From assembly GCA_046708665.1 (NCBI GenBank), contig JBKKDE010000044.1, forward strand, positions 1-24,532: a DNA stretch of 24,532 nucleotides, written 5' to 3'. Position numbers and translations under genes: made by a program. Of the stretch, positions 14,861-24,532 are shown piece by piece (the stretch's first letter is position 1; the number at the start of each line of letters is the position of its first letter). Under the pieces are notes generated by a model, which did no database searches, was not told the DNA's origin, and saw only the letters and a list, made by a program, of their open reading frames with translations. The DNA is from Candidatus Zixiibacteriota bacterium (GTDB lineage Bacteria; Zixibacteria; MSB-5A5; WJJR01).

Positions 14861-14913
14861 TCGACGGCTATCCTACAGACTGACATTATAACGGCATCTG
14901 CCCAAAAAGACAA
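14861..14913. promoter_or_regulatory. Overlapping divergent promoters for rpsT and murJ
   Basis: Minus strand: TTGTCT(14913-14908)-17 bp-TATAAT(14890-14885). Plus strand: TCGACG(14861-14866)-17 bp-CATTAT(14884-14889), with an extended TGn. Confidence 0.6.
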
Positions 14914-16502
14914 TGACCAAAGACGCCCCCAGTGCAGCCCAAACCGAACTTGGGGCACGAGGATTCGCCCGTCAGACTCGGATCGTCTCGCTGGCGACAT
15001 TTGCTTCCCGTATCTTGGGCGTTGTCCGAGAACAGGTTATCGCGTACTACTTTGGCGCGGGTGCCGTCACCGATGCCTTCGTCGCTGCATTCCGAATCCC
15101 AAATCTGCTGCGGGACTTCCTGGCGGAGGGCGCATTCTCAGCCGCCTTCGTTCCAACTTTCTCGGAGGTGCTGACTAAGGAGGGACGGCCGGCGGCCATG
15201 GAGCTCCTGCGACGGGTCTTAGGAGTGTTCGTGCCATCGTTGGCGATCTTGTGCGTCCTGGGCATCGTTTTCACGCCTCAGATTGCTCAACTACTTTCCG
15301 GTGGTACGGAGCAGACACCCGGCAAGATCGAACTGCTCGTGCATCTCGCGCGCTGGATGTTTCCCTTCCTGCTTCTCATTGCGCTGGCGGCTGTCCTCAT
15401 GGGTGCACTCAACGCACTGGGAAAGTTTGGAATTCCCGCGCTCGCTCCGGCGGGGTTCAATATCGGAATGATACTCTGCGCGACGCTGCTTGCGAATCGC
15501 GTGAACCCACCGGTGCTAGCACTTGCGTGGGGTGTGCTTGCGGGAGGATTCCTGCAGTGGGCAGTGCAGGCGGTTGCCATCACGCGTGAAGGATTTGATC
15601 TTCGCATCCGGCTCATAGCCGGTTGGCGCGATTCACGCGTCCGGCAGATCGGGCGTCTGCTTGTGCCGGCTTTGCTTGGCCAAGCTGCGGTTCAGATTAA
15701 TATCCTCGCCATCACCCGTGCTGCTTGGCAGATGGGGGATGGCCCGGTGGCGTATCTGAATTTTGCATTCCGCATTTTGTTTGTCCCGCTTGGGGTATTT
15801 GCAGTCGCGGCGTCGACAGTGGGATTGGCGCGGCTCTCCAAACAGGTCGCCGAAGGTAATGAGGAGCAGGCCCGCGAGACCTTCCGTCAATCGCTGCAAA
15901 CTGTCCTCTTTCTCGTCACGCCCACCGCGATAGCTTTCCTCGCGCTGGGTGGCCCGATTTGCGCGGCTCTCTATCAGCGCGGGGAGTTTACGGCCCAAGC
16001 CGCGGAAAGTACCGCACGGGCTCTCGCGTTCTATGCGGTAGGTTTACCGGCAATGGCCGCCATTCGCGCCGTTACGCCCATATTCTTTGCGCATAAGGAC
16101 ACGAAAACGCCGACGTTATGCGGTGTCGCCGCAGTCGTCGCGAATCTCATCGGAATACTGTTCCTCACGGGGCCTTTGGGATACGCAGGCCTCGCACTAT
16201 CAGTTGCGTTGTCGTCGGTGTTGCAGGTCGGGATCCTTTTGATTGTCGCAGCGCGCAAATACAACACGACCGGGTATGGGATCGTAGCGGCGCACTGGAT
16301 CGGATTCATCGCAATCTCCGTCACCGCAGTTCTTGGTGGGAGATTCGCACTCGATGCCGGTTTGTTCGGCTGGATGCCATTCGGCGTGGTCGGACGCATA
16401 AGTCTGACACTCGCACTTGCAGCCCTGTTCTATCTGACTGTATCATGGCTACTTGGTTATCGAAATTTGGGGAGCCGTCGATCCTCGCGACGCATGCCGT
16501 AG
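14913..16502 (+). CDS. murJ: Lipid II flippase MurJ (MviN)
   Basis: SRILGVVRE, AFRIPNLLRDFLAEGAFSAAFVP, multiple TM segments, YQRGEF, FFAHKDTKTP; divergent from rpsT. Confidence 0.95.
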   Translation: MTKDAPSAAQTELGARGFARQTRIVSLATFASRILGVVREQVIAYYFGAGAVTDAFVAAFRIPNLLRDFLAEGAFSAAFVPTFSEVLTKEGRPAAMELLRRVLGVFVPSLAILCVLGIVFTPQIAQLLSGGTEQTPGKIELLVHLARWMFPFLLLIALAAVLMGALNALGKFGIPALAPAGFNIGMILCATLLANRVNPPVLALAWGVLAGGFLQWAVQAVAITREGFDLRIRLIAGWRDSRVRQIGRLLVPALLGQAAVQINILAITRAAWQMGDGPVAYLNFAFRILFVPLGVFAVAASTVGLARLSKQVAEGNEEQARETFRQSLQTVLFLVTPTAIAFLALGGPICAALYQRGEFTAQAAESTARALAFYAVGLPAMAAIRAVTPIFFAHKDTKTPTLCGVAAVVANLIGILFLTGPLGYAGLALSVALSSVLQVGILLIVAARKYNTTGYGIVAAHWIGFIAISVTAVLGGRFALDAGLFGWMPFGVVGRISLTLALAALFYLTVSWLLGYRNLGSRRSSRRMP

Positions 16503-16527: not shown

Positions 16528-18858
16528 ATGAACACCGTATCGAGCGCCGATACCCGTATCCGTTGGATCCCTGCTTCCATCGCACGCCACCCCGCACTAC
16601 TTGCCGCCGCCTGCATTTGCGTCGGAGTGTTCCTCGGCGATGCCATCGACATGAGTTCTGGGGCAATACTCGTTGCAACCGTGGTGCTGGGTATCGTCGG
16701 CCTTGTGGCTTCCCAATCCGTGATTCTCACGACACGGGTGGTTGGGGTGATTGCCGTCTGTGGGGCAATCGTCGCACTCGGGGCATGGCGCATTACCGTA
16801 ACGAACTCCGGTCGACCATCGCCATCACTGACCGAGCTGATCGCGTCAGGACGCCAAGTCAACATATTTGCACGCGTCGATGGTGTCCCTTATCAGAAGT
16901 CGAGCGGCTGGCGGCTTCCTCTTGAGTTACTGTCAGTCAAGAGCCCAAGCGGTAATCAGTCAATCGCTGGCCGCGTGCTCTTGACCTCGATAGCATCCCT
17001 GCACGGACTACAATTCGGCGATTACATACGCTTCGACGGTCGCGTTTTCGCGGCTTCGATCCAACGCAACCTCGGCGGGTTCGACTACGCCGAGTACCTG
17101 CACCGCCAAGGGTTCGACGCCACAGTCCGTCCGCAGTCGCCATTGTTAAAATGGCCACAGGACATGCACTGGTCGCTGTACAACATTGCCGACCCCGTCA
17201 GGCAATGGATTCGCGAAACATTTGCAAGAAGTCTGGACGATGACCCGCAGGCGCTACTCGTCGGGCTTCTACTTGGAGACACCGACCGGCTCCCCAAGCC
17301 GGTGTATGACGCGTTTCGAGAATCGGGTACGTCGCACCTGCTTGCGGTTTCGGGAGCCAATGTGTGGCTCGTTGTGGGGATGATTCTCCTGCCGATGTAT
17401 GCGTTTTCAGTTCCACGCTGGCCACGAACGATTATCGCGCTGATCGTCATCGTCTTCTTCAGTTTTCTCACACGCAATGAGCCCTCCGTGGTGAGAGCCT
17501 CTCTCATGGTTGGGCTGATTTTGGCGGGACGACTGATGTGGCGGCCGGTTGCTCCGTTAAACGCCGTGGGCGCGGCCGCGTTAATTATTCTGCTGCTGTC
17601 ACCGGCTCAACTCTTCCGACCCGGCTTTCAGTTGTCATTTGCTGCAGTGATTGGAATCATCATAGCTGTGAGACGTGTTGAGCCGAAGCTGCGGGGGATC
17701 TGGCGCACGCGCTTGGTCTACACGGTCGTTTTGTTCCTTGTCGCGTCGTTGGCTGCAACTGTTGCGACAGCCCCGATCTCAGCTTGGCATTTTGGAACAG
17801 TTCCTGTCGCGGGGCTTGTCTCAAATCTGCTAATGGTTCCTCTGGCCGGCATGACCGCGCACCTCGGCCTGTTGCTCTTGCCCCTCCAGGCTGCAACTTC
17901 GACAGGTTCGAGAGCACTTGCCGTGGCCATCGAATACTTGCTGCGGTTGTCCACGCACATCGCCCAACTGTTCGCTGATATGTCGTGGGCTACGCTTTCC
18001 TGGCCATCGCCCTCACTGTTGATTCTCGGTCACTTCGTATTGGTGATTTGCTTGATTCTCAACTGGCGTCATCGGTACAGTTGGTTCAGGCCTTTCGTCT
18101 ACTATGTCTGCATCTCGCTCACGGTGTTCGCAGCGGCTCGACTTAGCAACCCAACTTCGCCCGTCGCATCAATATCGCTCCTGGACACAGGTCGGCAACG
18201 AGTAGCAGTGCTCTCAACCAGCGCCGGGATGGCGGCTGGGACAATTGACGATCCGGGATTGGACGACGAGATCGACCAGTGGATAGTTCAGCCATTCCTG
18301 CGACACAAAACGGGTGAGCCCAAATTGGATGCTTGGACATCATGGCGACGGCTAGCCGATTCTCCCACGTTTCAGACGTACGGTTCCGATATCCGGCCAC
18401 AAATATGGAAGCGGTTCTACACTCACGAAGATCTCGACACTCTTGGCCGACCTCGAGTTTGGGCCGATTTATGGCCGACGGATTCAGCCGACATTCTTAT
18501 GATTCGTGATATTCCGACGATGCCGCTGCCGTTACTCCTCGCTGAGACGGGTACCACTCTACGCTCGCCAACCATAATTATCCCCTCGCAGGCAAAAGTC
18601 GGCTGGGTCCGTGAAGTGCTTGATAGATTACGTCCTACGAGCGTAGTCCTGTATGGTCGGTCGCGATTCGGAGAGGACCCAGAAGAGACACTCGCATTCT
18701 GGCGGCTACGCTTTCCTGAGGTTGAGTTCTATTCGTCCGCTGAATACGGCGGGATCACTCTCGATATCTTGCCGGGCCAGGCGACTCTTACCCACACTGT
18801 CTCAAGCCCGCCGAAATCCTATCGAATAAAGGTCTCGCACAATTCCCCGATAAAGTGA
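16528..18858 (+). CDS. comEC: ComEC/Rec2 DNA uptake channel with degenerate C-terminal metallo-beta-lactamase-like domain
   Basis: N-terminal TMs plus an OB-like region (LQFGDYIRFDG, GGFDYAEYL). Competence-domain motifs GTSHLLAVSGANV, PSVVRASLM, GFQLSFAAV. Confidence 0.9.
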   Translation: MNTVSSADTRIRWIPASIARHPALLAAACICVGVFLGDAIDMSSGAILVATVVLGIVGLVASQSVILTTRVVGVIAVCGAIVALGAWRITVTNSGRPSPSLTELIASGRQVNIFARVDGVPYQKSSGWRLPLELLSVKSPSGNQSIAGRVLLTSIASLHGLQFGDYIRFDGRVFAASIQRNLGGFDYAEYLHRQGFDATVRPQSPLLKWPQDMHWSLYNIADPVRQWIRETFARSLDDDPQALLVGLLLGDTDRLPKPVYDAFRESGTSHLLAVSGANVWLVVGMILLPMYAFSVPRWPRTIIALIVIVFFSFLTRNEPSVVRASLMVGLILAGRLMWRPVAPLNAVGAAALIILLLSPAQLFRPGFQLSFAAVIGIIIAVRRVEPKLRGIWRTRLVYTVVLFLVASLAATVATAPISAWHFGTVPVAGLVSNLLMVPLAGMTAHLGLLLLPLQAATSTGSRALAVAIEYLLRLSTHIAQLFADMSWATLSWPSPSLLILGHFVLVICLILNWRHRYSWFRPFVYYVCISLTVFAAARLSNPTSPVASISLLDTGRQRVAVLSTSAGMAAGTIDDPGLDDEIDQWIVQPFLRHKTGEPKLDAWTSWRRLADSPTFQTYGSDIRPQIWKRFYTHEDLDTLGRPRVWADLWPTDSADILMIRDIPTMPLPLLLAETGTTLRSPTIIIPSQAKVGWVREVLDRLRPTSVVLYGRSRFGEDPEETLAFWRLRFPEVEFYSSAEYGGITLDILPGQATLTHTVSSPPKSYRIKVSHNSPIK

Positions 18859-18911
18859 AAGGCCCCCGGAAGATAAGGCGGGTCAGGGAATCTCTTGGGC
18901 AGGAGAGCCGC

Positions 18912-20087
18912 ATGAGCTTTGCTGGGAATCTAAAAACGGTCGTTTTTGGCGATGTGCTGCAATTGATCTCGACCGGTCGCCGCACCGGGGCGCTGGTTCT
19001 CAATCGTCCCCATCGCGGCAAGAAAATTTACTTTCGAACGGGTGACATCATCGCTGCCTCGTCGGAGCCATCGACTGATGAGGAACGTCTGGGGCAAGTA
19101 TTGCTCCGCAAAGGGATGATCAGTGTCGAGGATCTGGAAAAGGCATTGAAGCGTCAAAAATCGACCGGACGACGCCTGGGTCAGATACTTGTCGAGCTCG
19201 GTACAATGAGCAAGGAAAGCATCACCGATGCACTGCGGCTTCAGGTCGAAGAGGTCGTCTACGGTGTATTTGGATGGAACGACGGCGACTTCCAGTTCGC
19301 AGAAGGGGAGAAGCCTGAGGCCTCCCAAATCTTGGTAGAACTGAACACGCTGTCTGTCATGATGGAAGGTGCCCGGCGCTTCGATGAGTACTCAGGAATC
19401 GCAAGCACTCTGCCAAACGAAGAGACAGTGCTGCGTTTTGTGCCTTCCCCGCATCTCAAGGATCCGGAGATTGTTCTGTCCGCCGAGGATATCGATGTCC
19501 TTTCTGGCGTCAATGGCCAGCGTTCCGTTGCTGAAGTCGTCGCCACGTCCTCGTATGGCGAGTACGCTGCCTCAAAGTCTCTTCATAAGCTCCTGACATC
19601 CCATCTCATCGAGCCCTGTCCGGACGTTGCCGTTGCGGTAAAACAGCGCGCCGATGAGGATGAACTGATCGCCTTCATTTTCAAGCTTCACGCCCATGCC
19701 TTGCTGACCATTCATGCCACGCTCAAAGAATACCTCGGACGCGCTGGAGATCGCCTCTACTTCCACATTCCCGCTCTATGCTACGATGACCCGTGGGATT
19801 TGGCTGCTCCGTTGATCGATGCCGACGGTGCGCGCTCGCAAGAGCTGTTTCGTGAACGCGTCTCGCGGATTCCGGGCCCAATCCGTCTCCACCGCTCAGT
19901 CGCTACGGCCCATGCCCTTGTTCATGAAGGGATGCGGACGGTCCGCGACACCCTGGGCGACACCGTCGCTCACAATGTGGCTGAGTCAACCAAACGTGAA
20001 CTCGCTGTGCTTCTGGCACAGAAGCGCGCGCTGGGAGACAAATACGACGTTCACAACGAATTCTTCGCAATTCTCAGGGGGAGATAG
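18912..20087 (+). CDS. DUF4388/PATAN-like protein with internal MshEN motif and wHTH-like segment
   Basis: AGGAG RBS and ATG 18912. DUF4388-type MSFAGNLKTVVFGDVLQLIS..RRTGAL and FGWNDGDFQF...MMEGARRFDE flank a tandem MshEN motif. LSGVNGQRSVAEV is wHTH-like. Confidence 0.8.
   Translation: MSFAGNLKTVVFGDVLQLISTGRRTGALVLNRPHRGKKIYFRTGDIIAASSEPSTDEERLGQVLLRKGMISVEDLEKALKRQKSTGRRLGQILVELGTMSKESITDALRLQVEEVVYGVFGWNDGDFQFAEGEKPEASQILVELNTLSVMMEGARRFDEYSGIASTLPNEETVLRFVPSPHLKDPEIVLSAEDIDVLSGVNGQRSVAEVVATSSYGEYAASKSLHKLLTSHLIEPCPDVAVAVKQRADEDELIAFIFKLHAHALLTIHATLKEYLGRAGDRLYFHIPALCYDDPWDLAAPLIDADGARSQELFRERVSRIPGPIRLHRSVATAHALVHEGMRTVRDTLGDTVAHNVAESTKRELAVLLAQKRALGDKYDVHNEFFAILRGR
19086..19244 (+). 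repeat. Tandem MshEN c-di-GMP-binding motif (2 x 24 aa, 5-aa linker)
   Basis: RLGQVLLRKGMISVEDLEKALKRQ-KSTGR-RLGQILVELGTMSKESITDALRLQ matches RLGxxLxxxGxxxxxxLxxxLxxQ twice with the canonical spacing. Confidence 0.88.
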
Positions 20088-20090
20088 TAC

Positions 20091-20480
20091 ATGAAATCGA
20101 TTCGATACATGCTCATGGTCTGCCTGGCCATTGTGTTCAGCGCAGCGACGGCGTTGGCGGATTCGCCGGCGACAACCACTTCTGAAAGCTCGTCGTTTCC
20201 GCCTGGTACTTTACTGCTTCAGGCCGTGGCCCTGCTCATCATCCTTGCATGTGTGCTTGTGGCATTCAAATTCTACACATCGATCAAGGGCGGTCGTGTT
20301 GGCCAAGGATGGATGTGGCTGTCCTGTGGACTGGTAGTATTTGCTGGTGCGCAACTGCTGCTCTTCGGCGGGCAGCTCGGGGTCCTGCCTCTTCTTATCA
20401 TCTGGGTCGATGTATTAAAAGTTGTGTCGCTCCTGCTGTTCTTCGTTGGCATCAACCAACTTCGCAAGATCATGGCCTGA
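20091..20480 (+). CDS. Small membrane protein (signal peptide plus about 3 TM helices), unknown function
   Basis: GGGGAG RBS, 3 bp after the previous stop. Signal peptide ending ALA|D, then three hydrophobic segments with a KGGRVGQGW loop. Confidence 0.75.
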   Translation: MKSIRYMLMVCLAIVFSAATALADSPATTTSESSSFPPGTLLLQAVALLIILACVLVAFKFYTSIKGGRVGQGWMWLSCGLVVFAGAQLLLFGGQLGVLPLLIIWVDVLKVVSLLLFFVGINQLRKIMA

Positions 20481-20714
20481 TGTACTCGGTCTGCATCCGT
20501 GCCGGGATTATTCCTCGTCCCGGCCATGGGATTTCTCCCATACCGACAATTCCAATCTCGGCCTCCGAAGACGGTTCCACGTGTGACCGTGCTGTGAGTC
20601 GGTGTTAAGACAACCGCCCTGTAGGTCGATATTAATAATTGTTCCAGGCACATAACCTCGCAGGGCGCTCAGCGCGGGGCATCATGTCGGACTGCACCTA
20701 AAATGAGGGCGATC

Positions 20715-21602
20715 ATGCTTAGCGTGGCGCAATTGGACGAACGCATCGAGAAGTGTCTGGCGATACTCGCCGACAACCCGCATTCACAAGTCTTCGCGGC
20801 ACTCGCGGATACATACCGCAAGCGTGGTGAGTTCGGACGCGCGTTCGCCGTTTGCAAGAGTGGGCTCAAGCACCATCCCGATTATGCACCCGCGCACATC
20901 GTGATGGCCAAGCTGTATCTGCATCAGGGCATGTTCCAAGACGCACTGAACTCGCTCAAGCATGCTGAGGCGCAGGATGGCGTTACACGAGCATCGGAAT
21001 TCCTGGAGGCTGAGACTCTCATCGGCGTGCACGACTTTGATGCCGCGCACGCGCTAATCGAAAGGCTCCGCGCCACCGATCGGAACAACCCAGACGTGCT
21101 TGAATTGCAAGCAAAACTCAAGGCGTCGCGGGTGGTCTCGCCGAAGCCAACAAGCGTCGACGACAGAGCACCAGGAGCGACAGATATCGAGCGAGCCACT
21201 GTGCCGGAGCCGGCGGACGCCGTAGAGTACGTTGACTGGACGATGTGGGCACTCGAGATAGCAAAGCTGCCGCATGTTCAGAAGGCCTTTGCAGTGGAAC
21301 TCAGCGACAAAGGAACAACTCCGTTCTCAGTGCTCGCAGAAGCTGGTCCTGGGCACGATGCCGCGGATACGGTCAGCATTTGCGTCGCGCTCTTTGCGTC
21401 ACTCGATTCCCAATGCCGGGCCAAAGGCATCGGCATCGTTGAAGAACTGCGCATTGAGCGTCCGGACGGCGAAATCTGGTGCCATCGTTCCAGCGGACGC
21501 CTCGTAGGATTTTCAGGTGGACACGGTCTCTCATACGGCGCGCTTCGCCAGAAGGCATTGGACGGTGCCGCGCGGGTCAACAGTTACGAAATGAGTCAGT
21601 GA
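20715..21602 (+). CDS. TPR protein with C-terminal degenerate Roadblock/LC7-like domain
   Basis: TPR-type helices FAALADTYRKRGEFGRAFAVCKSGLKHHPDYAPAHIVMAKLY. The C-terminal EIAKLPHVQKAFAV...GIVEELRIERPDGEIW...SYGALR follows the Roadblock secondary-structure pattern. ATG 20715 (GAGG RBS) or 20703. Confidence 0.7.
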   Translation: MLSVAQLDERIEKCLAILADNPHSQVFAALADTYRKRGEFGRAFAVCKSGLKHHPDYAPAHIVMAKLYLHQGMFQDALNSLKHAEAQDGVTRASEFLEAETLIGVHDFDAAHALIERLRATDRNNPDVLELQAKLKASRVVSPKPTSVDDRAPGATDIERATVPEPADAVEYVDWTMWALEIAKLPHVQKAFAVELSDKGTTPFSVLAEAGPGHDAADTVSICVALFASLDSQCRAKGIGIVEELRIERPDGEIWCHRSSGRLVGFSGGHGLSYGALRQKALDGAARVNSYEMSQ

Positions 21603-21609
21603 GGACGCC

Positions 21610-22566
21610 ATGACAGGGACGATTTCGCGAAAGACATCGTATACGCCAATTGTTCTGCGCCTGGCGATTTACTCCGCGCTGTTGGTCTTGGTACCTCTCG
21701 TGCTGTACCCGAGGGGGTTCGGATTCCCTGCGTTGGATCTCAATCCCGCGATCGGACTCTTGGAATGGGCCTTCTACGTTGCCGTGCTCAGTCTGTCCGC
21801 GTCACGGCTCCCCTTCTCAACCCGTGTAGTCGCCGCAGGCTTCACCGTGCTCTTCCGCTTCACGATCGGGGCTATTGCTGGTTGGCTTGTCGGATTTGCA
21901 CATGGCGTGCCACAGTCGGAGACTGTTGTTGGTATGATGTGGTCGTATCCTATGGCCTTGATCCCCCACGTGCTCTTTGCCGCGGTGATTACGAGCCCCT
22001 TATGGGAAAACCTGATGTCGACACAACCGTCGCGTCAGTCGCCCCGTGCAACGGGCCGTACCAAATTCGTGTCTCCGGCGCTGTCGCCATCGACAGTGCG
22101 CACCAATTCTCACAACGCCACGGCATCGCGTGTGGCCTCCGTTGCTGGCGCACTGAATCAAGAGCCGTCATTCGATGATGCAGTGTCTTATATCGGTGAG
22201 TACACCGGCGTTCGTTTGTGCTGGATCGTGGACCGCGATGGTCTTCCCATCGCTGTGTGGCAACGCCAAATGTATACCGGAGATGCCGACTTCTGGGCTC
22301 CCGTTTCAGTCGAAATGATCGATTTCCATAGACAGCGTCTGTCGACCGGGGGTGACGTTTGCCAACCCGATCGGCTCGAAGTGCGCACCAATCAAGGACG
22401 GCTGGTGGTGGAATCGGTTCGTGACGTGTGGCTCGGCGTGCTAACAGATCCCGACGCTGATGAGTTGATCAGCGTACGAATCACGCGCGCACGGGAAATG
22501 ATTGCGAAACATTTGCAAGCGGAGGGCGGACTGACCATAGCCGCCGGGGAGGTTCAATATGTTTAA
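21610..22566 (+). CDS. Membrane protein (about 4 TM) fused to a C-terminal Roadblock/LC7 domain
   Basis: Four hydrophobic segments in the first ~135 aa, then an S/T/P/R linker. From ~22168: GVRLCWIVDRDGLPIA...RLEVRTNQGRLVV...WLGVLTD, which is Roadblock-like. Confidence 0.75.
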   Translation: MTGTISRKTSYTPIVLRLAIYSALLVLVPLVLYPRGFGFPALDLNPAIGLLEWAFYVAVLSLSASRLPFSTRVVAAGFTVLFRFTIGAIAGWLVGFAHGVPQSETVVGMMWSYPMALIPHVLFAAVITSPLWENLMSTQPSRQSPRATGRTKFVSPALSPSTVRTNSHNATASRVASVAGALNQEPSFDDAVSYIGEYTGVRLCWIVDRDGLPIAVWQRQMYTGDADFWAPVSVEMIDFHRQRLSTGGDVCQPDRLEVRTNQGRLVVESVRDVWLGVLTDPDADELISVRITRAREMIAKHLQAEGGLTIAAGEVQYV

Positions 22567-22897
22567 GGAACTGGCTCAACTGAACAGGACCACAGGCGTG
22601 ACAGGCAGCATGCTTGTCGGACACGACGGAATCGTGATTGCAGCGGATCTCGACGAGAAAACTGACGACGACACTCTGGGAGCGTTGGCGTCTTCGATCG
22701 CGGCAACCGTGCGTCGGTCGATGACGGAACTCGGCGCTCATGAATTCGCGCAGATTACCGTCGAAGCGGACAATCAGAAAATCTTCCTGACCGATGCAGG
22801 TATCGGAACGCTGGTCGTCACGACCGAGCCCCGTGTAAACATCGGCCTCGTCCGTCTTGAGATTCGCAACACCATTGGCGCGTTCGCGCGCGCTTGA
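22559..22897 (+). CDS. Stand-alone Roadblock/LC7 protein (MglB/MglC-like)
   Basis: GVTGSMLVGHDGIVIA, LGALASSI, QITVEADNQKIFL, NIGLVRL. GGAGG RBS; 8-nt overlap with the upstream gene. Confidence 0.9.
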   Translation: MFKELAQLNRTTGVTGSMLVGHDGIVIAADLDEKTDDDTLGALASSIAATVRRSMTELGAHEFAQITVEADNQKIFLTDAGIGTLVVTTEPRVNIGLVRLEIRNTIGAFARA

Positions 22898-22937
22898 CGC
22901 AGAAGGGTTCACGAACCACACGGAGAATGAAGGAGCT

Positions 22938-23915
22938 ATGGTTTCGATTAACTACGCCTTCCGCGAAATAAGCTGCAAGATCGTCTACTATGGTCCCGGC
23001 CTGTCCGGAAAGACGACGAACCTGCAGTACGTGCACGACCGCGTTCCCGCGAAGTCGCGCGGCGACCTCATCAGTCTCGCGACCGAGGCCGACCGTACTC
23101 TGTATTTCGACTTTCTGCCGATCCACGTAGGAGACATCGGGGGATTCTCGACCAAGTTCCAGCTCTACACAGTCCCTGGTCAGGTGTTCTACAACGCGAC
23201 GCGCAAGCTGGTTTTGCGCGGCGTGGATGGGATCGTCTTCGTTGCCGATTCACAGTTGGCCAAGATGGATGAAAATATTGAGTCGCTCGCGAACATGTAT
23301 GAAAATCTACGCGAAAACGACATCGATGTGCAAGCCATGCCGTTGGTGTTGCAGTACAACAAACGCGATCTGCCCGACATCGCATCAATTGAAGAACTCG
23401 AGAAGACGATCAATCCCGACGGCCGTCCCATTGTGGAGGCGAGTGCCGTCAAAGGCGTTGGTGTTTTCGATACGATGAAGCGAATTACCAAGCTCGTACT
23501 GGAAGACACAAAACGCAAAACATCCGGGCAACAGCCGTCGACTCCGACCGCGACCAAACCGACGACTCCGTCGGTGCCGATCGACGGCATGCTGACGTCA
23601 TCGGGCCCGGTGTCCGAGTTGCGGCAGTCAACAGCCGCACGCGCGGAGGACGGATGGAACACGGACCGCCATGGCGCGGGAGCCGCTGCGGTCGCGGTCG
23701 TTGAACCGGCAGCCGCATCAAAATCCACACGTGGGCCCATTGGCGTGTCAGCAGAAAGTTCACCGAGTTCAGAAGCCAGGATAGCAGGAACGGCTCACTC
23801 GACAACGCGCAACGATAATGCGGCGTCGGTTGTAACGGCCCAAAGAAGTACACGAATTCGTCGTCGTCAACGATCACTGTTCGATCGCCTCTTTGGCTGG
23901 CTGTTCGGACGTTAG
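22938..23915 (+). CDS. mglA: MglA-family small Ras-like GTPase with long C-terminal extension
   Basis: INYAFREISCKIVYYGPGLSGKTTNL (G1), DRTLYFDFLP (intrinsic Arg finger), TVPGQVFY (catalytic Gln), NKRD (G4). AAGGAG RBS and ATG 22938. 325 aa versus ~195 aa for M. xanthus MglA. Confidence 0.93.
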   Translation: MVSINYAFREISCKIVYYGPGLSGKTTNLQYVHDRVPAKSRGDLISLATEADRTLYFDFLPIHVGDIGGFSTKFQLYTVPGQVFYNATRKLVLRGVDGIVFVADSQLAKMDENIESLANMYENLRENDIDVQAMPLVLQYNKRDLPDIASIEELEKTINPDGRPIVEASAVKGVGVFDTMKRITKLVLEDTKRKTSGQQPSTPTATKPTTPSVPIDGMLTSSGPVSELRQSTAARAEDGWNTDRHGAGAAAVAVVEPAAASKSTRGPIGVSAESSPSSEARIAGTAHSTTRNDNAASVVTAQRSTRIRRRQRSLFDRLFGWLFGR

Positions 23916-23927
23916 AGGAGGTCTTGG

Positions 23928-24404
23928 ATGTCGTCAGGAGCTTATGTTTTATATGAAGATCAGATTGACCGCATCAACACAGCGCTCTTGCGCCTGTTGA
24001 AAAAGGCGGAAGCAAAGTGTGCCATCCTGGCGGATAAGGACGGGCACTTGATCACGCGCCAGGGATTCACCCAGTCACTGGATACAACGGCGTTGGCAGC
24101 GTTGCTCGCAGGCAGCTTTGCCTCCACCCGCGAGATCGCGCGGTTGGTTGGTGAGCCGGAATTCTCGGTCCTTTTTCACCAGGGAGTCCGCGATCACATT
24201 CACATCTGCCTGGTTGGAGAGCGTTGCATCCTGGCCATCGTGTTCGATGACCGAACGACGATCGGCATGGTGCGACTCTATGCCAAGGAGACCGCTGATC
24301 GACTGAAGGAGCTAACAACACCGGCGGCCGACGGCCGGGCTGACCTGTCGGACGATTTCTCGACCAGCGCCGGGGAGAAGATCGACAGCATGTTTAAGGA
24401 GTAG
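23928..24404 (+). CDS. mglB: MglB (Roadblock-family GAP for MglA)
   Basis: Closely resembles M. xanthus MglB from memory: LYEDQIDRIN, AILADKDGHLI, LDTTALAALLAG, LFHQG, IVFDDRTTIGMVRL, C-terminal IDSMFKE. AGGAGG RBS. Confidence 0.92.
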   Translation: MSSGAYVLYEDQIDRINTALLRLLKKAEAKCAILADKDGHLITRQGFTQSLDTTALAALLAGSFASTREIARLVGEPEFSVLFHQGVRDHIHICLVGERCILAIVFDDRTTIGMVRLYAKETADRLKELTTPAADGRADLSDDFSTSAGEKIDSMFKE

Positions 24405-24532
24405 GGCTCCGGGTGGTTCGGGTAGAGGCGCGAAGCTGGAATCGTACACATAATCGGCATGCGGTCATGACTCAAAAGACCAGGGATTGTAAATAACGTG
24501 TCGCAGGAACTAGGACACATGCTGGTGCAGGC

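Follow-up and report, generated by a model that had tools for sequence, protein, structure and literature searches.

The window analysed here is the whole of a 24,532-bp contig (C44) from a Zixibacteria metagenome-assembled genome (MAG; 2.37 Mb in 421 contigs, about 81% complete), and open reading frame (ORF) calls and translations place a seven-gene array on its plus strand at positions 18912-24404. We read this array as the Zixibacteria form of the MglA/MglB polarity switch, which works in association with the membrane to control the type IVa pilus motor, and we put the probability of this reading at about 0.68. The array is a distinct, enlarged, membrane-tethered variant within the MglA/MglB polarity-switch family, of which we found no description. 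We favor the controller reading because of the domain identities of the encoded proteins, the synteny and tight junctions of their genes, the adjacency of pilB, the joint loss of module genes, the separate clades formed by the Roadblock domains and the recurrence of the same families elsewhere.

For Ras-like control of polarity in bacteria, MglA/MglB serves as the model, and mechanistic knowledge of it comes nearly all from Myxococcus. MglB is the GTPase-activating protein (GAP) of MglA, and MglA-GTP promotes PilB function at a pole. The features of the array are as follows, with the evidence for each in brackets; TM denotes transmembrane and TPR tetratricopeptide repeat.

18912..20087, plus strand: PATAN (DUF4388) protein, 391 aa (Pfam PF14332, NCBIfam NF053729)
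19086..19244, plus strand: tandem MshEN motifs of the PATAN protein, residues 59-82 and 88-111 (motif search, NF053729, column conservation)
20091..20480, plus strand: small membrane protein (smTM), 129 aa (translation; conserved position)
20703..21602, plus strand: TPR-Roadblock fusion, with the start likely the conserved Met at 20715 (Pfam TPR_19/TPR_14, alignment, AlphaFold2 (AF2) model, hhalign, Foldseek)
21610..22566, plus strand: four-TM (4TM)-Roadblock fusion (alignment, AF2, hhalign, Foldseek)
22559..22897, plus strand: free Roadblock/LC7 protein, 112 aa (Pfam Robl_LC7, alignment)
22938..23915, plus strand: MglA, whole gene (ORF call)
22938..23522, plus strand: MglA G domain, residues 1-195, group 1 (similarity to M. 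xanthus MglA, motifs)
23523..23915, plus strand: MglA tail, 130 aa (translation, orthologue comparison)
23859-23912, plus strand: basic/amphipathic MglA C-terminus, last ~18 aa, a predicted membrane-targeting sequence (hydrophobic moment)
23928..24404, plus strand: MglB, a Roadblock GAP with C-terminal extension (M. xanthus MglB match, NF052242)

The genes are mostly closely packed, with 3 bp between the PATAN and smTM genes, about 222 bp between smTM and TPR-Roadblock, 7 bp between TPR-Roadblock and 4TM-Roadblock, an 8-nt overlap between 4TM-Roadblock and the free Roadblock gene, 40 bp between the latter and mglA, and 12 bp between mglA and mglB. These ORF calls agree with the seven genes, coordinates and spacings given in an earlier reading made from the window's letters (the sequence-only reading). 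Because all large ORFs of the 24.5-kb window lie on the plus strand, co-orientation by itself carries no weight, and it is the tight junctions and the conservation that count instead.

The identity of the two fused Roadblock domains was established by comparison of profiles and models. The free Roadblock protein matches Pfam Robl_LC7 at E 3.6e-15; in 20 loci it keeps 45-94% identity, which places it with the best conserved Roadblock proteins of the array. The TPR protein matches TPR_19 (E 8e-14), and its C-terminal domain has no Pfam Robl_LC7 (PF03259) match in the window protein, though several orthologues do carry a precomputed PF03259 match; the 4TM protein has a partial, sub-threshold Robl_LC7 match of 18.4 bits against a cut-off of 23. 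With hhalign profiles built from orthologue alignments of 20 related genomes, the free Roadblock was matched by the TPR-Roadblock domain over 110 columns with a probability of 98.5% (E 3e-15) and by the 4TM-Roadblock domain with one of 96.7% (E 4e-10), and the two fused domains matched each other at 97.4%. Both are farther from MglB (72% for TPR-Roadblock and 56% for 4TM-Roadblock), and the negative controls, MglA and the small membrane protein, gave 0.1-0.2%. In the AF2 model of the TPR-Roadblock protein (predicted local distance difference test score (pLDDT) 88.4), residues 8-145 form TPR helices and residues 179-298 an a-bb-a-bbb-a domain, with residues 150-172 as a disordered linker between them. 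In that of the 4TM-Roadblock protein (pLDDT 78.5), the four TM helices fall within residues 12-136 and the same a-bb-a-bbb-a fold occupies 188-317, the linker between them (139-182) being disordered. Foldseek searches of the PDB with both models returned LAMTOR2/3, Asgard and Streptomyces Roadblock structures and MglB, with template-modelling scores, taken by target, of about 0.7 for the TPR-Roadblock model and 0.8-0.88 for the 4TM-Roadblock model. Profile matches, AF2 topology and Foldseek matches together show that the count of one MglA and four Roadblock domains, proposed in the sequence-only reading, is correct, both fused domains modeling as Roadblock folds.

With the 4TM protein, an Atlas feature search returned only weak Roadblock clusters (0.79), and clusters of the AlphaFold Database (AFDB) hold further proteins that align across both its membrane part and its Roadblock part. 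The membrane part (window 21610-22020) carries an invariant E52 in TM helix 2, an invariant R83 in TM helix 3 and a near-invariant Tyr56. Conserved charges within predicted membrane helices suggest, at the level of sequence, that the 4TM region is a functional membrane domain, beyond a simple anchor. An in-frame TGA inside the 4TM-Roadblock match in one family proved to be merely a slightly earlier stop, and recoding or gene fission was rejected.

Against the structure library, the free Roadblock profile matched Asgard Roadblock structures best (E 1e-12), followed by CvnB5 (7e-6), MglB (1e-4), and LAMTOR2 and dynein LC7 (2e-3). A LAMTOR5 match in the free Roadblock was sub-threshold (13.3 bits against 27), and no Ragulator family scored above cut-off in Pfam and NCBIfam scans of the cluster proteins. 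By profile similarity the three extra Roadblock domains belong to the generic LC7/LAMTOR type and differ from that of MglB. When the four types of Roadblock domain from 21 genomes were placed in a maximum-likelihood tree, 4TM-Roadblock (support 99/88), free Roadblock (96/90) and MglB (85/89) formed one clade each. The TPR-fused domain evolves fast and its placement in the tree was not resolved, yet it did not mix with the other types. The single clades indicate that the Roadblock paralogues are older than the divergence of the 20 sampled Zixibacteria lineages and that their functions have stayed separate.

The G domain of MglA resembles that of M. xanthus/T. thermophilus MglA, matching M. xanthus MglA (5ymx/6izw) at E 3.3e-75 and 3t12 at E 1e-69. 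It has the marks of group 1, namely a P-loop, an intrinsic Arg finger, a PM3 Thr in place of Asp (T..GQ), the catalytic Gln and an mglB gene within four genes, here 12 bp downstream. The Arg-finger motif and the T..GQ motif are present in 93/93 orthologues and the P-loop in 92 of the 93. By its sequence, MglA has the canonical G domain of group 1, complete with an intrinsic arginine finger and the catalytic glutamine. Behind this domain the MglA tail consists of a low-complexity linker of ~110 aa, then a basic patch and an amphipathic C-terminus; Pfam and NCBIfam scans detected no domain in it. Among some 90 orthologues the tail varies from 100 to 316 aa and the basic/amphipathic end is retained in nearly all, with a median of 8 Lys plus Arg in the last 25 aa. 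The hydrophobic moment is 0.67 at the window MglA C-terminus (phylum median 0.53), against 0.39 in linker windows. From these features we infer that MglA is probably targeted to the membrane through its tail. A variable tail with an anchor-like end also resembles the hypervariable region and membrane anchor of eukaryotic Ras-type GTPases.

MglB matches M. xanthus MglB at E 1.6e-32 over residues 6-157, C-terminal extension included, and has the Roadblock fold, with a Robl_LC7 match at E 3.7e-12. It also matches NF052242 (E 2.8e-23) with 82.8 bits, under the equivalog cut-off of 200. By its sequence it is a canonical GAP-type Roadblock protein, predicted to stimulate the MglA GTPase. The membrane anchors named in the sequence-only reading were recovered as the 4TM domain, the small TM protein and the basic amphipathic C-terminus of MglA.

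At the start of the array, the PATAN protein matches PF14332 (DUF4388) with E 1.3e-32 in two stretches, and the insertion that splits the match is an MshE-type cyclic di-GMP (c-di-GMP) motif, NF053729, at residues 59-111 (64.6 bits against a cut-off of 38). The MshEN consensus reportedly consists of two tandem 24-residue motifs with a 5-residue spacer (Wang et al. 2016). In the window protein a motif search found both 24-residue motifs intact, 5 residues apart, and the window's own genus carries the fully canonical form. Divergent PATAN orthologues also pass the NF053729 cut-off, 10/10 of them with 39.9-58.6 bits, and in counts of column conservation over 97 orthologues motif 2 retains its Gln in 97%. 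A strict tandem regular expression found two matches in just 6/96 orthologues; the column counts and NCBIfam scans account for this shortfall, the insert being conserved and motif 1 relaxed. Judged by its motifs, c-di-GMP binding by this protein is plausible here and uncertain elsewhere in the phylum. The description of the switch as c-di-GMP-gated in the sequence-only reading therefore holds as far as the canonical tandem motif goes, while gating is predicted from that motif, of which motif 1 is partly degenerate in the phylum at large. These genomes contain 3-4 GGDEF genes each.

The C-terminal ~230 aa of the PATAN protein match no Pfam family but are of a kind usual in PATAN proteins, and residues 160-391 match PatA_N-bearing Atlas clusters. 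PATAN proteins appeared among the structural neighbors of the Roadblock domain (Atlas row 8, template-modelling score 0.48; AFDB ranks 19 and 23), so that the PATAN core could itself be Roadblock-like; against this, hhalign comparison of the window PATAN with Roadblock profiles was negative (0.1-2.8%). The adjacent smTM has a signal-peptide-like N-terminus and about three hydrophobic helices in its translation, with no family match in Pfam.

The array is conserved across the phylum, as a survey of gene neighborhoods in 100 related loci and of phylum genomes with completeness of 80% or more established. The 4TM-Roadblock protein is encoded in 37/41 nearest genomes, and a profile search found its gene in 252/257 phylum genomes, representing 119 of 120 genera. 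Gene order is identical, as far as contigs reach, in 20/20 loci cut from genomes and in 80/80 loci found with the TPR-Roadblock profile, and runs on one strand from MurJ and ComEC through PATAN-MshEN, smTM, TPR-Roadblock, 4TM-Roadblock and free Roadblock to MglA and MglB. A PATAN orthologue and the smTM position are kept in all examined loci. The junctions are conserved as well. Across 94 loci the 4TM-Roadblock and free Roadblock genes have a median distance of -8 bp and never lie more than 20 bp apart; median gaps are 2 bp for PATAN/smTM (96 loci), 13 bp for TPR-Roadblock/4TM-Roadblock and 22 bp for free Roadblock/MglA (~95 loci each), and 15 bp for MglA/MglB (91 loci). About 107 bp separate smTM from the five genes that follow, and a median of ~120 bp separates ComEC from PATAN. 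The array is thus two tight blocks, PATAN-smTM and TPR-Roadblock to MglB, and not one unit. Several of these loci, L039 and L071 and those of many related MAGs, come from records titled "uncultured Ignavibacteria", "Acidobacteriota" or "Terriglobales", which are probably automatic mislabels.

Two of the five genomes without a 4TM-Roadblock gene are explained by assembly breaks, with matches at contig ends. In the other three, G018 (96% complete), G027 and G150 (96%), MglA, TPR-Roadblock and 4TM-Roadblock were all not found with these queries, and PilM is kept. The module genes appear to have been lost together in two Zixibacteria lineages represented by these genomes.

The connection to the pilus lies directly downstream of mglB, where the window contig stops after 128 bp. 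In a near-complete relative the genes that follow mglB are pilB (MshEN plus T2SSE), pilT, pilC and a PilS-like kinase gene. Among loci with at least 2 kb of downstream sequence, pilB is adjacent to mglB and co-oriented with it in 84/84, and among those with at least 6.5 kb the pilB-pilT-pilC-pilS series is present in 64/70. PilM is encoded in these genomes, and no flagellin was found in the window's own genus. The module is therefore not self-contained, as the sequence-only reading had supposed: in relatives mglB always precedes pilB, usually with pilT-pilC-pilS next, and the window contig merely ends.

Published work already links several of these components. In Synechocystis, PATAN domains bind PilC and the N-terminal part of PilB1, and the annotation of PATAN proteins with GspE_N/MshEN has been remarked on in print (both bioRxiv 10.1101/2021.06.11.447907). 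[quoted passage not shown] The Roadblock paralogue MglC binds both MglB and RomR (PMC4719450). Some mglA genes are coupled to two mglB-family genes. Our literature search found no papers joining Zixibacteria with MglA and none on TPR- or TM-fused Roadblock proteins in an Mgl cluster. The view that the arrangement had not been described stands for the whole, on which we found no paper, and does not stand for the PATAN-Mgl linkage or for the combination of PATAN with GspE_N/MshEN.

The TPR-Roadblock and free Roadblock pair also occurs outside Zixibacteria. A profile search of 1.84 billion representatives returned 104 proteins at E 1e-30 or better, lower-scoring full-length TPR-Roadblock proteins included. 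In the Atlas, clusters of equally sized TPR-Roadblock proteins are labeled mostly Gemmatimonadota or Zixibacteria, the taxonomy of those from outside Zixibacteria being that of the Atlas labels. Four such loci have the following gene content.

L123: MCP, CheW, X-Roadblock, free Roadblock, TPR-Roadblock, MglA
L124: TPR-Roadblock, a 1,066-aa protein, a 2-TM protein, free Roadblock, tail-less MglA (199 aa), MglB
L125: Che genes, PATAN-TPR, TPR-Roadblock, free Roadblock, MglB, DnaA-like ATPase, a second PATAN-TPR
L126: TPR-Roadblock, free Roadblock, X-Roadblock, MglB, free Roadblock, then pilMNOPQ-pilB-pilT

The 1,066-aa protein of L124 begins with four TM-like segments and matches Roadblock weakly at its C-terminus. 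Locus L125, a Gemmatimonadota-type Che cluster, shares with the Zixibacteria array MglB, the pair of TPR-Roadblock and free Roadblock, and PATAN proteins that carry an MshEN-like insert, but differs in being a chemosensory operon with a DnaA-like ATPase, in having PATAN fused to TPR, and in that none of its genes checked has TM-like segments. The pair sometimes lies in a locus without MglA. It is a recurrent, uncharacterized companion of Mgl, Che, PATAN and pilus genes.

Upstream of the array the window carries housekeeping genes, encoding YicC, guanylate kinase, topoisomerase I, an XerC-like protein, HslVU, an aspartate/ornithine carbamoyltransferase-family protein, a GNAT, a geranylgeranyl reductase and the two conserved neighbors listed here. 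No Rfam family matched within positions 18500-24532.

14913-16502, plus strand: MurJ (upstream neighbor)
16528..18858, plus strand: ComEC, 776 aa (Pfam Competence/DUF4131; conserved upstream neighbor whose membership in the system is uncertain)

If the array is a membrane-associated controller of the pilus motor, it could work as follows. The tail would hold MglA at the inner membrane. The 4TM-Roadblock and free Roadblock proteins, whose genes overlap, and the TPR-Roadblock protein would make up a membrane-fixed platform, their Roadblock domains dimerizing with one another or with themselves. This platform would position MglB, MglA or both, and the TPR domain would recruit partners, so that together they would fill the role that MglC/RomR/RomX and SgmX have in Myxococcus. 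MglA-GTP would then promote engagement of PilB at one pole. The PATAN-MshEN protein may bind c-di-GMP and contact PilB/PilC, as cyanobacterial PATAN domains do, and the second messenger would thereby be coupled to pilus extension. A more specific form of this scheme we consider unlikely in its entirety: that the three extra Roadblock proteins make a membrane-embedded heteromeric platform which acts as exchange factor or landmark for membrane-tethered MglA and replaces RomR/RomX, that a c-di-GMP-binding PATAN protein couples it to PilB, and that the whole would be a counterpart of Ragulator, widespread in phyla of the Fibrobacterota-Chlorobiota-Bacteroidota (FCB) group. Among the window ORFs scanned with Pfam there is no receiver domain, a scan that included no search aimed at RomR, RomX, RomY, SgmX or FrzS.

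The extra Roadblock proteins need not assemble with one another at all. Each could homodimerize and act alone in an Mgl module that has additional accessories but forms no Ragulator-like assembly, an arrangement we regard as possible if somewhat improbable. We would only tentatively assign the roles it implies: the 4TM fusion would mark a fixed site on the membrane, the TPR fusion would serve as an adaptor for effectors, and the free Roadblock would modulate MglB in the manner of MglC. The solved prokaryotic Roadblocks among the best matches (MglB, Asgard, Streptomyces) were deposited as homodimers or homo-oligomers, three extra domains are an odd number for strict pairing, other lineages have two, three or four Roadblock genes in differing orders, and complex prediction lent no support to a specific pairing. 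However, the stop of 4TM-Roadblock overlaps the start of the free Roadblock gene in essentially every locus, and the free Roadblock directly follows TPR-Roadblock in the unrelated contigs L121, L125 and L126; both are what would be expected of obligate partners. Inherited gene order with no functional link, in which seven independent genes simply stayed together in a slowly rearranging region of a small-genome phylum, seems to us very improbable. The wholly co-oriented window and the synteny shared by housekeeping MurJ and ComEC fit it, but the junctions overlap or nearly abut, MglA, TPR-Roadblock and 4TM-Roadblock are lost together, the same families re-assort in other lineages, and MglA-MglB is a known functional pair.

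A different question is what a functional module would control. Its main output could be an envelope process other than twitching, either DNA uptake through competence pili and ComEC or the polarity of envelope growth or division with MurJ. In nearly all loci the module is preceded by MurJ and ComEC, natural transformation is an established joint task of ComEC and type IV pili, and PilM is retained where the module is missing. We nevertheless think such an output distinctly unlikely, in that the gap of ~120 bp between ComEC and PATAN compares with 2-22 bp within the blocks, the TPR-Roadblock, Roadblock and Mgl genes of other lineages accompany Che and pil genes and not ComEC or MurJ, and MglA, PATAN and pilB/T/C are tied to pilus-based motility in the organisms where they have been studied.

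Several observations weigh against the array being a membrane-associated controller of the pilus motor. The protein identities were assigned from sequences and models, and the hosts are uncultured. Since MurJ and ComEC are syntenic with the array in nearly all loci, part of its conservation may mirror the general stability of the region and not function. PilM is kept in three genomes that lack the module, so pili are not strictly dependent on it. In motif 1 of the MshEN insert the first Arg is replaced by Leu in 53% of phylum orthologues and the last Gln by His in 60%, and c-di-GMP binding may therefore not be general. The complex prediction for the three non-MglB Roadblock domains, with the free Roadblock as partner, gave a score of 0.54, with one control at 0.87, a result that supports no pairing of these domains and counts against none. 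The free Roadblock profile matched no chain named MglC up to E 10 in a library whose content of MglC is unconfirmed, and the analogy to MglC is for this reason functional only. A scan for sigma-70 promoters and terminators found sites no more frequent than in shuffled sequence, and runs containing the locus were DNA metagenomes only (freshwater sediment, soil), with no RNA-seq run among them; operon structure is accordingly taken from gene spacing alone.

The proposed membrane-associated switch matters beyond this contig. In Myxococcus MglA is soluble and its regulators are scattered over the genome, while here one array, kept by a whole phylum, unites the switch with three more Roadblock domains, two kinds of membrane anchor, the pilus motors and what may be a c-di-GMP input. 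This layout suggests that the switch can run on a membrane, like eukaryotic small GTPases on Roadblock/longin platforms. The function of the TPR-Roadblock and free Roadblock pair would bear on many uncultured bacteria and on the evolution of GTPase Roadblock platforms. All parts of the array are small and soluble, or have soluble domains, and their predicted interactions are testable by heterologous expression.

Among known systems, the actinobacterial conservon (CvnA kinase, CvnB Roadblock, CvnC DUF742, CvnD GTPase) is alike in combining an MglA-family GTPase with a Roadblock protein and a membrane component. It differs in that the GTPase here belongs to group 1 and not group 2 and is associated with pilus genes. 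Pfam and NCBIfam scans found no HATPase_c/HisKA and no DUF742 in the seven proteins, as the sequence-only reading had it in setting this architecture apart from the conservon. The cyanobacterial PatA-type PATAN regulators PixE, PixG and LsiR likewise have a PATAN domain associated with the pilus motor. Here, in contrast, the PATAN protein has no receiver domain, its input would be c-di-GMP through MshEN and not phosphorylation, and it is paired with a small membrane protein.

Ragulator-Rag (LAMTOR1-5, RagA/C) is alike in having several membrane-tethered Roadblock domains beside a small GTPase, and the folds predicted here superpose on LAMTOR2/3. However, no LAMTOR1-like wrapping subunit is apparent in the array, a fused 4TM domain and, separately, the tail of the GTPase would provide the tethering, and MglA shows no sign of being an obligate heterodimer. 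The Rag client GTPases dock through their own C-terminal Roadblock domain, which MglA lacks, its tail being low-complexity. We therefore regard the array as analogous to Ragulator and not a member of it; its Roadblock domains may, as the sequence-only reading inferred, heterodimerize into a Ragulator-like platform.

The MglA-TPR(Bd2492)-RomR-CdgA hub of Bdellovibrio bacteriovorus (PMC3983030) connects MglA and its TPR partner with a c-di-GMP receptor and with type IV pili at a pole, components that have their counterparts in the array. The Zixibacteria array has MglB, a PATAN protein with an MshEN insert as candidate receptor, and extra Roadblock domains and membrane anchors. Bdellovibrio, for its part, is said to be without MglB, and its c-di-GMP receptor is reportedly a degenerate GGDEF protein.

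The Myxococcus polarity module (MglA, MglB, MglC, RomR/RomX, RomY), with SgmX as the TPR effector that acts on PilB, is alike in the catalytic motifs of MglA, a canonical MglB, extra Roadblock paralogues, a TPR protein and a tie to the type IVa pilus extension ATPase. The Zixibacteria system differs in that its MglA has a tail of 100-316 aa with a basic amphipathic end, and in that it has three extra Roadblock domains where Myxococcus has one, these being of the generic LC7/LAMTOR type and not detectably MglC-like. One of the three is an integral membrane protein and another is fused to a short TPR domain, whereas SgmX is reportedly a large TPR protein without a Roadblock domain. While the Myxococcus genes are dispersed, those of Zixibacteria form a single array with pilB-pilT-pilC, and no receiver (REC)-domain gene is among the window ORFs scanned with Pfam.

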